Shown: positions 45,061-49,095 of the stretch, piece after piece | Position numbering within the stretch: the first letter of the stretch is position 1 | Layout of the letters: every line of letters starts with the position of its first letter | Assembly (NCBI GenBank): GCA_047404215.1 | Contig: JBDOIV010000038.1 | Span: 2,220 to 66,219, forward strand | Origin: Rickettsiales bacterium | GTDB taxonomy: Bacteria; Pseudomonadota; Alphaproteobacteria; Rickettsiales; UBA1997 | Direction of reading: 5' to 3' | DNA length: 64,000 nt | Notes under the pieces: model-generated | Databases searched by the model: none | What the model saw: only the letters and a program-made list of their open reading frames with translations | Told to the model about the DNA's origin: nothing | Program-made: the position numbers and the translations under genes

Positions 45061-48000
45061 ATGACCACACAACGAAATAGAGCCAATCGCTCATCTAAAG
45101 CAGTTCTGTCAAATCGCGCGGCTAAAGCTGTAATACCTAAAATCTTAAAACAGCGTGGTGGTAATTTGTCAAATTTTAGGCAAAGGTCTGCTACTGAGTA
45201 TAGTAAGGGTGAAGAAAAAGGAAAGTCTGCAGGGTATCATAATAGAAAAAGAGGAGCTGGTTCTGTTACCTCTAAAGAATTTGTAAAAGCGAAGTCGAAG
45301 AAAAAGTTAAATAAACCTGTTGCTAGGGCTGCTACTATTGCAGCTTCGAAACCAGGAAGAGGGTCAGGTCAAAATGCTAGGGATGCTCGAAAGGCAGAAA
45401 GATCTCTTGCTTTGTTTTTGCTGGCATTAGGTGTTAGTGCCAAAGTCGCCTCAGCACAAAAATCTTCAGATTTAAGTGGAGTCGAGGCATTAAAAGTTTC
45501 CCCACTTGTTTTTGAGGTTTCAGTTAGTGATGGTGAGTTAAGCTTTGGATATGAATATAATGCTGCAAAGTACAACATAGATATTGCTAATTACTCATCA
45601 GGACTGTTCCTTTCTAGTAATATGTCTATTAAAGATTCTTATGGTAACGATGTATCTCGTGACAAATCAGAGGCAATCTTTAAATCATTAACAAAATTAG
45701 CTAATGACAATATGAAGGGTGTCACTAGAAAAACAGAAGGTTCTGCATATGGTGGAGGGGGTGAGTTTAAGGTTAATAGAGGTGTATCCAGGGGTCTCAA
45801 AGTAAGTCCAGAAGATCCTGCATCTAATGTAGCTTCAGATACTAGCGGTAAAATTATTTTCGAGCGAGCATTGAAGGAGGGAGTTCTTGGTGATTTAGAA
45901 AAAGTTTTAAAAGATAGGCCTGTAATTATCCATGAAGCATTTCCCAATGGTTTATTTCCTATACATATCGCCTCCGAAAATGGAAATGAAGACGCTGTCA
46001 GGTTTTTATTAGAAAATGGAGTAAATCCTAGTATGCTAAGTAATTTGGGTGATCATCCTCTTGATATTGCGGCTCATAATGGTCATGAGAAAATTGTTAA
46101 GCTTTTACTGGGTCATGGAGCAGAAACCAATCTCAAGAGAGTTAGCGATGGAAAAACTGCTGCAGAAGTAGCTAGGAATCTTGGTAAGGATCTTATAGCT
46201 GATATGATTGATGCAAAGTCAGCACTGGTATCAAGTATTTTTCATAAAATTTCTACCTCTTCAGGCTCGATAGCTGATGATTTTGCTGATTTGGCCTTTA
46301 TGCCAGGCAGGAAGGAATATCATGATTTTGAATTTATGATAGATTCTACTCCGGTTTTATATGAAGAGCAGCCTTATCGTGTTAACTATAAAGGTGGAAG
46401 TAATGATGCGCAATTATATGAAGCATCATTAGCGCTAGGTTTACAAAAACTCGGGGATGAAGATATAAATCCTCCGCAGAGTATTACCTTACCTTTGCCC
46501 GTTAATATTGTAACTCGTGGTTCAAACATTTATCCGCCGTTTAAAATCATATCTCCAGATTTAAAAGTTGCATCTAGAGTAGTTTCAGTGAGGAAGGTTA
46601 ATCCTTTAACTAAGGTTTTAGAAGTGTCAAAAGAAAAAATAATAAAGGATGCGGTTGGTGGTGATGATGTTTCAGAAAATTATTTTAGATCAATTAATAG
46701 ATTAGAAGCATTTGGAGTGGGTGATTTAGCTCGTCACAATACATTTCAAAATTCACAGTTGAAATATGTTTTTCCGGATCTTGATACCTTTAGAACTCCC
46801 CAAGTTGAATCTCTTGGTTTTTTATTTAACAACCTTACCTGCAGGAATACATCTGATCTCAGTGAAGTTTGCGTTGAAGGGTTGTCGTATTTGAAATTTT
46901 TTGTTAATGATATGGCTATATTAATTGATTCCCAATGGTGGCAGAGGGCAAAGTCAATTAAGCTAGGGATTTTGGCGCAAGATGAATGGGAAAGACAAGA
47001 TCATGAAAAAGGTTTTTTAGAAGTGGAAAGTGATATAAGAAAATTATCCGCTACAATACCTATAATTAAGAAAGCTATAGATGCTTTAAATCGTTATTCA
47101 GAAAATCATCATGATCAAAAACTGAAATTTGATTACATTAAAAGTTTTCATGAAAATTTGGATAGGATGTTAGAAGGACTTTCCTTGAATAAGCAGCAAG
47201 AAAATATATATTGCGCAGTTGAAGGATATCATTTGGAACGTGATGAGGGTGGTAATGAGGTTCTACTCGCAACTGTTAGAGATATTAGTGCTGGTGGTAA
47301 GTCAAGATATTTTAAGCATTTAAAAGAGGTATATGCAAAATCTGAGTACGCAGATACGCCATTACGATTCAAGGATTCTAATGAAAGAATCATGTTTCTA
47401 CCATTTGATTGCCTGCCTAAATATTTACAAGGTGATATGAAAATTATTGGCGATCTAACAAAAGAACAGAAGGATTTAATGGCAAAAGGCTTAAGACATA
47501 CTGAGCAGGTTCAAGCATTATATGATGCATGTTTGATGAAAGGTGCAGATTCTGTGGCCGCCATTAAGGCGTTTTTCGATAAGGGCGTGAGTGTTGATAC
47601 AGTATTTGAAAATGGTGCAACAAGCCTTCATATAGCTTCTCAAAGAGGAGATGTAGAGCTTATGGAGTTTTTATTAAATAAGGGGTCGGACCCCTCAATA
47701 ACTTTTAAAGGTGAGGGTAATGCTCTAAATTTGGCTACTGAAAACAATCATACAGCAGTAGTTAAATTGCTATTGGGTCGTAGTAGTGTAGATGTCGATC
47801 AGAAAAATGATAGAGGTGAAGCCCCACGAGACGTGGCTATTAAAAATGGTTTCAAAGAAATTGAAGAGTTGATATTGAAGAGTGATCTGCTACATGCATG
47901 CTTGCGTGAGGGTATCGCATTTATTAGGAAAATTCTAAAAAATGATAGTAAATATGCTAATGCGGTGTTAGATGATTGGTCTACTGTGCCAATACATCTT

Positions 48001-49095
48001 GCATCTAAAGCGGGAGATTTAACAATTGTGAAGGAGTTGTTAAAATTTGGCGCCGACCCCTCATTAATCGATAGAGATGGGATGAATTCGCTACATTACG
48101 CGGCCGAAATTGGAGATGAGAAAATTGTTAAGCTTTTATTGGATCATGGCGTGAGAACCGATCAAAAAAGAGATGGCGATGGAAAAACTGCTGCAGAATT
48201 AGCTAGGGATCAATTTAAATTTTATGATGATAATTTTTCGGCAGATGACGCAGAAGAGGCTAGGAGGTCTTCAGCATTAAAAAATATTGTTTATATGATT
48301 GATGCGCAAATAACTGAGCATAATGTTGATAAAATTAATTTAATTGACGCGTGTGCAGAGGGTAAAATTGATATTGTAAGAAGAGTGATAGAAATTAAAC
48401 CCGATGCCGTTAATGCAGCATTTTCTAATGGTGCATTTCCTATACATAGTGCCTCTGAAAATGGAAAGGAAGATGTTGTGACTTTTTTATTAGAAAACGG
48501 AGCCGACCCTTCAGTTACATTTGAAGGTGGTGAAACTCCGTTGTATTTTGCAGCTCAAAATGGTCATATAGAAGTGGTAAAGGAATTATTAAAGAGGGCC
48601 GATGTAGATATAAATCAACCTGCTAATGATAATGTAACCCCTTTATTTAAAGCTTATGAATTTAGAAGGATGGATATGGTTGAGTTGTTTTTGCAGCGCG
48701 GTGCTGATTGCAATATTGCTCGAAAAAGCGATGGGACAAGTATATTCCATATTGTGTGTGAAACTGGAAATGAGCATATGGTAAAGTTATTGCTAGAACA
48801 TAATTGTAATGCTTCAGATACCATGAATAACGGGGTAGATGGATTATTTATGGCTGCTCAAAATGGGCATGAAAAAATTGTTAAGCTTTTACTGGATCAT
48901 GGCGTTAAGACCGATCAAAAAAGAGATGATGGGGAAACTGCTTTAGATATGGCTAGGCATTGGGGTTACCATAATGTTGTCAAGATGATTGAGGCTGTTA
49001 AAAAGTCAAAAGAAAAACCTTCTGAGAGGTTGATCTATATCAGGGGTCGTCCAGTTCCTGCTGTTATAACAGAACATGAAGGTGCTGAGCTTTGA
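45061..49095 (+). CDS. Chimeric 1344-aa protein: Arg/Lys-rich N-terminal tail, one hydrophobic segment, ANK block, novel conserved core (paralogue of the 57773 gene), then a long ANK array
   Basis: Basic tail of about 114 aa, then LALFLLALGVSAKVASA. ANK units at about 45940-46215 and 47510-49000. The core at about 46240-47490 aligns colinearly with the 634-aa paralogue. Confidence 0.9.
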   Translation: MTTQRNRANRSSKAVLSNRAAKAVIPKILKQRGGNLSNFRQRSATEYSKGEEKGKSAGYHNRKRGAGSVTSKEFVKAKSKKKLNKPVARAATIAASKPGRGSGQNARDARKAERSLALFLLALGVSAKVASAQKSSDLSGVEALKVSPLVFEVSVSDGELSFGYEYNAAKYNIDIANYSSGLFLSSNMSIKDSYGNDVSRDKSEAIFKSLTKLANDNMKGVTRKTEGSAYGGGGEFKVNRGVSRGLKVSPEDPASNVASDTSGKIIFERALKEGVLGDLEKVLKDRPVIIHEAFPNGLFPIHIASENGNEDAVRFLLENGVNPSMLSNLGDHPLDIAAHNGHEKIVKLLLGHGAETNLKRVSDGKTAAEVARNLGKDLIADMIDAKSALVSSIFHKISTSSGSIADDFADLAFMPGRKEYHDFEFMIDSTPVLYEEQPYRVNYKGGSNDAQLYEASLALGLQKLGDEDINPPQSITLPLPVNIVTRGSNIYPPFKIISPDLKVASRVVSVRKVNPLTKVLEVSKEKIIKDAVGGDDVSENYFRSINRLEAFGVGDLARHNTFQNSQLKYVFPDLDTFRTPQVESLGFLFNNLTCRNTSDLSEVCVEGLSYLKFFVNDMAILIDSQWWQRAKSIKLGILAQDEWERQDHEKGFLEVESDIRKLSATIPIIKKAIDALNRYSENHHDQKLKFDYIKSFHENLDRMLEGLSLNKQQENIYCAVEGYHLERDEGGNEVLLATVRDISAGGKSRYFKHLKEVYAKSEYADTPLRFKDSNERIMFLPFDCLPKYLQGDMKIIGDLTKEQKDLMAKGLRHTEQVQALYDACLMKGADSVAAIKAFFDKGVSVDTVFENGATSLHIASQRGDVELMEFLLNKGSDPSITFKGEGNALNLATENNHTAVVKLLLGRSSVDVDQKNDRGEAPRDVAIKNGFKEIEELILKSDLLHACLREGIAFIRKILKNDSKYANAVLDDWSTVPIHLASKAGDLTIVKELLKFGADPSLIDRDGMNSLHYAAEIGDEKIVKLLLDHGVRTDQKRDGDGKTAAELARDQFKFYDDNFSADDAEEARRSSALKNIVYMIDAQITEHNVDKINLIDACAEGKIDIVRRVIEIKPDAVNAAFSNGAFPIHSASENGKEDVVTFLLENGADPSVTFEGGETPLYFAAQNGHIEVVKELLKRADVDINQPANDNVTPLFKAYEFRRMDMVELFLQRGADCNIARKSDGTSIFHIVCETGNEHMVKLLLEHNCNASDTMNNGVDGLFMAAQNGHEKIVKLLLDHGVKTDQKRDDGETALDMARHWGYHNVVKMIEAVKKSKEKPSERLIYIRGRPVPAVITEHEGAEL

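Follow-up and report, generated by a model that had tools for sequence, protein, structure and literature searches.

A 64,000-nucleotide stretch of contig JBDOIV010000038.1 (the window) carries, on the plus strand at 45061-49095, a gene whose predicted product of 1344 amino acids (aa) follows the same plan as a smaller protein encoded further downstream, with ankyrin (ANK) units in addition. The plan common to the large and small genes consists of a strongly basic N-terminal tail, a hydrophobic segment and an orphan core, and sequence comparison supports the view that the large protein is this layout plus ANK units at two positions. In order, the large protein comprises the polybasic tail, the hydrophobic segment, a linker, ANK unit A, the core of about 430 aa, and ANK units B1, B2 and C (Table 1). 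The interpretation favored here, with moderate confidence, is that it is a modular, Sec-exported and lineage-specific protein that interacts with the host or the envelope, in which ANK units were gained and copied within the gene and the core carries a conserved activity.

The homology of the two cores is clear from one long colinear BLASTP match, which pairs aa 383-837 of the large protein with aa 115-591 of the small protein at 29% identity over 506 columns (E=2e-47). A preliminary description of the locus had all three parts of the plan colinear between the two proteins. For the core this stands, and colinearity therefore does extend outside low-complexity sequence; for the tail and hydrophobic segment the correspondence holds by architecture, with marginal similarity in sequence. 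Tail and segment together give E=0.009 when uncorrected for composition and E of about 9 when corrected, and the Smith-Waterman score (z=2.2) is reached by 15 of 500 shuffles. A different junction, which would pair the small protein's segment with aa 385-401 of the large protein, was rejected because 99 of 1000 shuffles reach its score and it is therefore not significant.

The window is about 36% G + C and contains the housekeeping genes asd, mnmE, polA, ftsZ, spoT/relA and nuo subunits. Its FtsZ is 95% identical to that of a metagenome-assembled genome (MAG) labeled Rickettsia sp. (JAYPPA01), about 85% identical to those of several freshwater "Rickettsiales bacterium" MAGs and about 69% identical to those of true Rickettsia; to judge by these identities, the organism is an uncultured Rickettsiales-like alphaproteobacterium. 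ATG 45061 is the sole plausible start of the large gene, which is intact in independent assemblies (three sequencing runs and one NCBI contig), and an assembly chimera is thereby ruled out. The open reading frame (ORF) of the small gene ends at 59623 and yields 616 aa from ATG 57773, or the 634 aa first attributed to it if translation were to begin upstream at GTG 57719. Because the ATG lies 2 nt past the stop codon of the upstream gene and is also the start in independent gene calls of an identical protein, it is most likely the true start, and the shorter length is adopted here.

The tails are 112 aa long in the large protein and about 116-118 aa in the small protein, with isoelectric points (pI) of 11.8 and 12.0 and net charges of +25 and +29, and beyond them the remainder of both proteins is acidic. 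The top hydrophobic stretch after the tail is LALFLLALGVSAKVASA, followed by QK, in the large protein and GIVAISILAATA, followed by KK, at aa 119-130 of the small one. Each is a single run of about 12 hydrophobic residues ending in A-S-A (large) or A-T-A (small), and that of the large protein, its top Kyte-Doolittle window (1.96 over 17 aa), is too short for a typical membrane helix. Sec signals consist of a positive n-region, an h-region of 7-15 residues (about 20 for an anchor) and small residues at -3 and -1, a small-x-small ending being typical of signal peptidase I sites. Both proteins provide the h-region (about 10-12 residues), the site and a strongly positive n-region, but the latter measures 112-118 aa, about 20 times the usual length. 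Since the residues after the segments (QKS after A-S-A in the large protein, KKS after A-T-A in the small) resemble those of two neighboring proteins of 444 aa (RS after A-S-A) and 405 aa (KKS after G-F-G), which are considered below as paralogues, the comparison suggests that the segment is the signal peptide of the family and that the tail was added in front of it.

Two other accounts of the N-terminus were rejected. A Tat signal is not indicated, there being no RR pair beside either hydrophobic segment (...KAERSLALF... in the large protein; ...STRSVKLSVKGIV... in the small). As for a downstream start that would remove the tail, the in-frame candidates lie only inside the hydrophobic segment, and the tail ORF is open, with an in-frame indel, in all strains. 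Substitutions between strains cluster within both tails (45061-45396 and 57773-58126), some of them in adjacent runs, and the neighboring sequence is almost invariant; relaxed constraint, diversifying selection and recombination breakpoints are all candidate explanations.

Pfam ANK families match the whole large protein far above their cut-offs (Ank_2, 271 bits against a cut-off of 27.3, E=3.6e-82; Ank, 234 bits). Four blocks pass the cut-off when scanned alone (aa 270-387, 817-942, 943-1088 and 1089-1317), and the tail and aa 134-269 do not. These blocks are the four units of Table 1. ANK repeats are helix-turn-helix elements of 33 residues that stack in groups of at least 3-4 with caps, and on manual parsing each unit shows this arrangement: an N-cap helix pair, A(C)xxGxxxxhxxhh...NxxFxNG, then 2-5 full repeats and a C-cap, DG(K/E)TAxxxAR. 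The ANK block first noticed before the core, at about 45940-46215, is thus unit A (45868-46221), although the 136-aa linker ahead of it had been missed; the array of about 480 aa described after the core does consist of ANK sequence, yet it is not a single array, being made up of three separately capped units with a total of 501 aa. In the small protein there is neither a Pfam ANK match nor an ANK remnant at either junction. The linker itself (aa 134-269) matches no Pfam family and resembles none of the ORFs in the window or the related loci, and the idea that it arose by degeneration from a different stretch of the gene was dropped when no such similarity was found.

Within the ANK units, the module HEKIVKLLL...DGKTA occurs three times, at aa 342, 1019/1020 and 1270, and FPIH.ASENG twice, at aa 299 and 1126, as had been reported from the first inspection. 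The three HEKIVKLLL modules share 76-84% DNA identity over about 96 nt (E=1e-14 to 7e-26), the copy in unit B2 being 84% identical to that in unit A and 83% identical to that in unit C, and for the two FPIH copies the figure is 85% over 67 nt. When all 15 repeats were compared in register, the 105 pairs had a median DNA identity of 42% and a 90th percentile of 54%, against which B2b-C5 (75%), A1-C1 and A2-C5 (70% each) and A2-B2b (69%) stand out. In protein sequence, unit A moreover lines up colinearly along unit B2 (43% over 108 aa), as it does with the first (51%) and last (49%) parts of unit C, so that in sequence it looks like unit C minus three internal repeats. Because position-matched repeats are so much closer in DNA than the median pair, the duplication of whole capped units within the gene can, on these comparisons, be regarded as real, possibly sharpened by later gene conversion, and the domain shuffling through internal duplication proposed at the outset is upheld. 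There was no difference in ANK copy number among the sampled strains.

A neighboring gene at 37757-41629 (plus strand) encodes 1290 aa that are nearly all ANK (27 Pfam Ank matches) and contain long, near-identical internal duplications. The best DNA matches of the recurring modules to this neighbor are fragments of 27-69 nt (E 1e-3 to 8e-6), far poorer than those among the modules themselves. As all DNA matches between the two genes are short (27-139 nt), the repeats of the neighbor are not the direct source of the ANK units.

The direction of change is inferred to have been gain of ANK rather than loss. Gain is favored because the other family members are ANK-less, because the small protein carries no ANK relics and because the ANK units are less diverged than the cores. 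In the reverse scenario, the ancestor would have had ANK units that the 616-aa gene and the other paralogues lost. Decay and deletion are certainly active at the locus, where one related strain has lost most of the small gene and has a broken 405-aa gene, and recombination readily deletes ANK repeats (PMC3563639). Such a history is nevertheless very unlikely: in each of four ANK-less lineages, ANK would have to have been lost cleanly from two sites, the junctions of the small protein are free of remnants, and the units are 69-84% identical in DNA whereas the cores are 29% identical in protein, which implies that the units spread or were homogenised long after the cores split.

The gain of ANK would then fit a history of three steps. 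The ancestor would have consisted of a signal peptide and a core, a state that the 444- and 405-aa paralogues retain; the polybasic extension ahead of the signal peptide would have been gained before the large and small genes diverged, in their common ancestor; and the large gene would have acquired a capped ANK unit that was copied inside the gene to both sides of the core.

The ANK-less relatives lie between the large and small genes and encode proteins of 444, 405 and 499 aa. None of the three has a Pfam match, ANK repeats or a basic tail, and each begins with a signal-peptide-like segment. Common to them and to the two cores is the motif G-h-x-D-h-x(3-5)-N ... h-h-(P)-D-x-D-x-F-x-x-P, then L-x-x-F-h-x-S-x-x-(W/Y), within which G, D, N, D and P are invariant across 8 of 8 aligned family sequences. 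Because the genes are clustered, have a common layout and give hhalign matches (Table 1), the 444- and 405-aa proteins are probable, and the 499-aa protein a possible, remote paralogue of the core. The 405-aa gene, directly upstream of the 616-aa gene, is probably in the same operon.

Searches with the core found no relatives beyond the large and small proteins themselves. A profile of the two cores, run with HMMER against 1.84 billion representative proteins, recovered only the 616-aa protein and a 1343-aa strain variant of the large protein, and no relatives of the core turned up in a genome-collection scan or in two metagenome scans. Word-indexed searches with the core and with an 8-sequence profile returned nothing, nor did one with aa 1-290 of the large protein, from an index that is incomplete for the lineage and that also missed the large protein's own cluster. 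None of the eight members has a Pfam match in the core even at E<=10, NCBIfam has none outside the ANK regions, and neither the full nor the motif-only alignment has a PDB profile match at E<=10. Two AlphaFold2 runs gave core models of mean pLDDT 41.7 and 42.9, which are unusable, and Foldseek with the better of them returned helical-bundle noise (best E=0.15, TM-scores <=0.19). To judge by these searches, the core is an orphan family, new here, that is confined to one uncultured Rickettsiales-like lineage. The early proposal that a eukaryote-like domain had been fused to a novel core holds for the orphan core and, as far as "eukaryote-like" refers to the type of domain, for the ANK units.

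Two suggestions can be made for the chemistry of the core. In the protein-kinase-like superfamily, a catalytic-loop Asp is followed 5 residues on by an Asn and about 13 residues further by a metal-binding Asp of the DFG type. The spacing in the large protein (D0, N+5, D+18), with the three residues at Asp555, Asn560 and Asp573, equals the catalytic-loop/DFG spacing of PKA, and the Asp, Asn and Asp are invariant in all eight aligned sequences. The Asp-Asn spacing in the other members is 5-7, which is atypical for kinases; upstream of the core motif no conserved Lys or Gly-rich loop of a kinase N-lobe was identified, and there is no profile or fold match to kinases. GT-A glycosyltransferases, toxin-type enzymes among them, for their part have a DxD after a hydrophobic strand in a Rossmann-like nucleotide-binding fold. 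A hydrophobic stretch and then DxD occur in 5 of the 6 distinct paralogue types (the 499-aa protein has DVG), and profile and fold searches of the core family gave no match to this class. A kinase-like or DxD-transferase center is thus a tentative and rather unlikely proposal. A bolder one, which is doubtful as a whole, would make the core a previously unseen enzyme family of one lineage, with a kinase-like or nucleotide-sugar-transferase-like center, exported via a hypervariable polybasic extension of about 115 aa before an ordinary signal peptide and aimed by four ANK adaptors at targets in the host or the envelope.

Related copies of the locus were found by exact-sequence look-ups in the Logan assemblies of five runs and in one 77-kb NCBI contig. 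The large gene of strain L082 is intact, encoding 1343 aa, and its body is about 99.7% identical to that of the window gene; the nearby mnmE, polA and CNNM genes are 78-95% identical between the two. Past the tail there are 8 replacements in 1232 residues, and within the tail 16 of 111 aa are replaced and one codon is inserted or deleted in frame (dN/dS about 1.1). Four other assemblies contain identical or near-identical copies of the small gene. The 7 nucleotide differences seen in two strains all lie within its first 174 nt. In L082, all that is left of the 616-aa gene is a 20-codon stub, and the 405-aa gene is split into three ORFs. The position of the 444-aa gene is occupied there (L082 10853-12136, between polA and a metallo-beta-lactamase gene) by a 427-aa allele that cannot be aligned by BLAST, keeps the motif and is without an obvious signal peptide. 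The comparison of related strains suggested earlier thus finds the large gene conserved and the small gene reduced, and strain-level turnover of the kind seen in this small, rapidly changing family is typical of host-interaction genes.

Divergence from L082 across 41630-61026 is mosaic, with identity in 250-bp windows ranging from 100% down to 87%, polA at 88% and the CNNM/CorC gene at 78%. Such a mosaic points either to frequent recombination or to an exchange of the ANK gene in the recent past.

The same comparison bears on the idea that the family is decaying or non-functional and that the large ORF is an accidental fusion without selected function. The dN/dS of the whole large gene between strains is 0.88 and that of its tail is higher, at about 1.1; family neighbors are pseudogenised or deleted in one strain, and the adjacent asd is frameshifted. 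That said, a 4-kb ORF remains open in an AT-rich genome in every assembly that has it, the tail has just one indel, which preserves the reading frame, and outside the tail the gene is nearly identical between strains whose flanking genes have diverged by far more. Beyond the tail there are too few substitutions for dN/dS to be informative. Decay seems highly improbable.

If the large protein is instead a functional, Sec-exported one, it might work as follows. The basic tail would remain in the cytoplasm, in keeping with the positive-inside rule, and the hydrophobic segment would drive Sec-dependent export of everything downstream, being either cleaved after A-S-A or kept as a membrane anchor. 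The core would carry the conserved activity of the family, its invariant Asp, Asn and Asp suggesting metal or nucleotide binding. The four ANK units would serve as independent adaptors that tie the core to other proteins, either in the envelope or, if the product were released further, in the host cell.

A different destination would follow if the protein were an effector translocated into the host cell by a type 4 or type 1 system, its tail directing it to the nucleus, nucleolus or mitochondrion and its hydrophobic segment acting as a host-membrane anchor or sorting signal. Both tails do have Lys/Arg clusters like those of bipartite nuclear localisation signals, RKR-x14-KSKKK in that of the large protein and KR-x10-KVKK in that of the small, though any highly basic segment fits such patterns through composition alone. 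The tails evolve fast between strains, and type 4 or type 1 substrates are common among the ANK effectors of Rickettsiales (PMC11077975, PMC4315096). Against this, the paralogues that lack both ANK and tail have ordinary N-terminal signal peptides at the equivalent position, which argues for Sec export of the family, and the window contains no secretion-system genes. The C-terminus of the large protein is not basic, and by a weak heuristic its composition is unlike a type 1 or type 4 secretion signal (LDAVTSIF fraction 0.40). Translocation into the host is, on this evidence, unlikely.

Several points weigh against the picture of a Sec-exported protein that accreted ANK units. An n-region of 112 aa is far beyond that of normal signal peptides, and export is inferred from a 12-residue stretch, an A-x-A site and analogy with the paralogues. 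The homology of the tails rests on architecture and composition and is not statistically established, and for the 405- and 499-aa proteins homology to the core is weak, with hhalign probabilities of 22% and 1%. What looks like recent duplication could also stem from gene conversion between ANK units, and the shuffling of ANK does not account for the 136-aa linker. Finally, with no profile match and with both AlphaFold models unusable, no specific biochemical activity is supported for the core.

Table 1. Coordinates of the parts of the large gene, of the small gene and of the putative remote paralogues in the window
Feature	Position	Strand	Description
Polybasic N-terminal tail, large gene	45061-45396	+	aa 1-112; probably disordered; strain-variable
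Export-type hydrophobic segment, large gene	45397-45459	+	LALFLLALGV then SAKVASA, followed by QK; resembles signal-peptide h-region/c-region with A-x-A site, or signal anchor
Unique linker, large gene	45460-45867	+	aa 134-269 (136 aa); Ser/Gly-rich; no counterpart in small protein
ANK unit A	45868-46221	+	aa 270-387; N-cap, repeats A1 and A2, C-cap; between export segment and core; Pfam Ank E=9e-16 alone
Orphan core	46222-47508	+	aa 388-816; homologous to core of 616-aa protein
Core motif GVGDLARHN-x12-FPDLDTFRTP	46714-46800	+	invariant alignment columns; hhalign matches centered on motif
ANK unit B1	47509-47886	+	aa 817-942; N-cap, two repeats, C-cap; Pfam Ank_4 E=1e-14 alone
ANK unit B2	47887-48324	+	aa 943-1088; N-cap, two repeats, C-cap with acidic insertion of about 40 aa; second HEKIVKLLL module; Ank_2 E=1e-27
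ANK unit C	48325-49011	+	aa 1089-1317; N-cap, five repeats, C-cap; second FPIH and third HEKIVKLLL modules; Ank_2 E=4.5e-41
C-terminal tail and stop	49012-49095	+	27 aa; from translation
444-aa protein, probable remote paralogue	52592-53926	+	N-terminal signal peptide, ASA site; no tail, no ANK; hhalign E=1e-4, probability 58%, 74 columns
499-aa protein, possible paralogue	55013-56512	+	motif partly degenerate (PDVG for PDxD); hhalign E=0.05, probability 1%
405/395-aa protein, probable remote paralogue	56554-57771	+	signal-peptide-like N-terminus; hhalign E=1e-3, probability 22%, 96 columns
616-aa paralogue (small gene)	57773-59623	+	tail about aa 1-118, hydrophobic segment aa 119-130, core about aa 137-565, motif aa 293-324, short acidic C-terminus; no ANK

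Other features of the window lie outside the family. The spacer upstream of the large gene (44425-45060) contains a G + C-rich island of about 50 nt at about 44598-44650 in otherwise AT-rich sequence, present in L082 as well. Within the same spacer, 44785-44896 is a copy, about 81% identical, of an internal piece of mnmE (43979-44095), and L082 has this copy too. The asd gene for aspartate-semialdehyde dehydrogenase (41821-42868) has a frameshift in a poly-A run, with A8 in the window against A7 and an intact 348-aa gene in L082, so that the split may be either a pseudogene or a homopolymer sequencing error. At 17392-20604 on the minus strand is a 1071-aa class I aminoacyl-tRNA synthetase in which, by Pfam, the catalytic domain is interrupted midway by a GNAT acetyltransferase domain at aa 538-675. 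Downstream of the small gene, a 322-aa ORF at 61693-62661 (plus strand) has a signal-peptide-like N-terminus, no family match and no match to the core-family profile; it may encode another lineage-specific exported protein, and in strain L085 a 916-aa ORF comes after it.

Among characterized proteins, a precedent from the same bacterial order is RARP-1 of Rickettsia parkeri, in which an N-terminal Sec signal and a large disordered region come before the C-terminal ANK repeats; it is periplasmic and binds envelope and secretion proteins (bioRxiv 10.1101/2022.02.23.481736). The likeness to the large protein is one of architecture only, and RARP-1 is without a folded orphan core, a 110-aa polybasic extension or an ANK unit upstream of a core. 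RARP-2, a translocated effector, joins an N-terminal clan CD protease to an ANK array that directs localisation. It is a cytoplasmic type 4 substrate that binds RvhD4 through its C-terminal tail, and strains differ in how many of its near-identical tandem ANK repeats they have (PMC11077975). With RARP-2 and divergent RARP-2 proteins of Rickettsiaceae the large protein has in common the pairing of a functional domain with an ANK array, in a modular and lineage-specific form. Here, in contrast, the ANK units are diverged and capped, lie on both sides of the core and show no change in copy number among the strains sampled, and the core is unrelated by sequence. No homology to RARP-1 or RARP-2 was detected outside the ANK repeats, the core profile having matched just its own clusters among the 1.84 billion representatives.

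Wolbachia ANK genes undergo intragenic duplication, deletion and shuffling of repeats, and include chimeric repeats and mosaic recombination between strains (PMC3563639). Those families are mostly ANK-only, or ANK plus a membrane segment, whereas in the large gene whole capped units have been copied across a large non-ANK core. The Dot/Icm effectors of Legionella and Coxiella that contain ANK repeats (AnkX, which is a FIC enzyme plus ANK, and AnkG, AnkH and AnkY) likewise combine an enzyme or orphan domain with an ANK targeting module. They differ in that they are not known to have an N-terminal export segment and depend on a type 4B system, and their cores show no relation to the one described here. 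The NCBIfam models for AnkG, AnkY and AnkH touch just the ANK block of the large protein, at E values of 2e-4 to 0.015, far below the cut-offs, which reflects generic ANK similarity.

Intracellular bacteria are well known for ANK fusion proteins and for the shuffling of ANK repeats within genes, and in this respect the large gene is a fairly ordinary case of ANK accretion. The practical value of the locus is limited, the organism being uncultured. Fusion of ANK to lineage-specific domains is, however, a main route to host-interaction proteins in intracellular bacteria, and this locus would hold the forms before and after such a fusion together in one genome, along with more distant ANK-less relatives and turnover between strains. 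It would make a compact case in which to study the copying of capped ANK units from one side of a non-repeat core to the other, and could reveal the role of a very long polybasic extension ahead of a signal peptide. New here are the family of orphan cores, the flanking of such a core by capped ANK units on either side and the very long, hypervariable polybasic extension before a signal-peptide-like segment.

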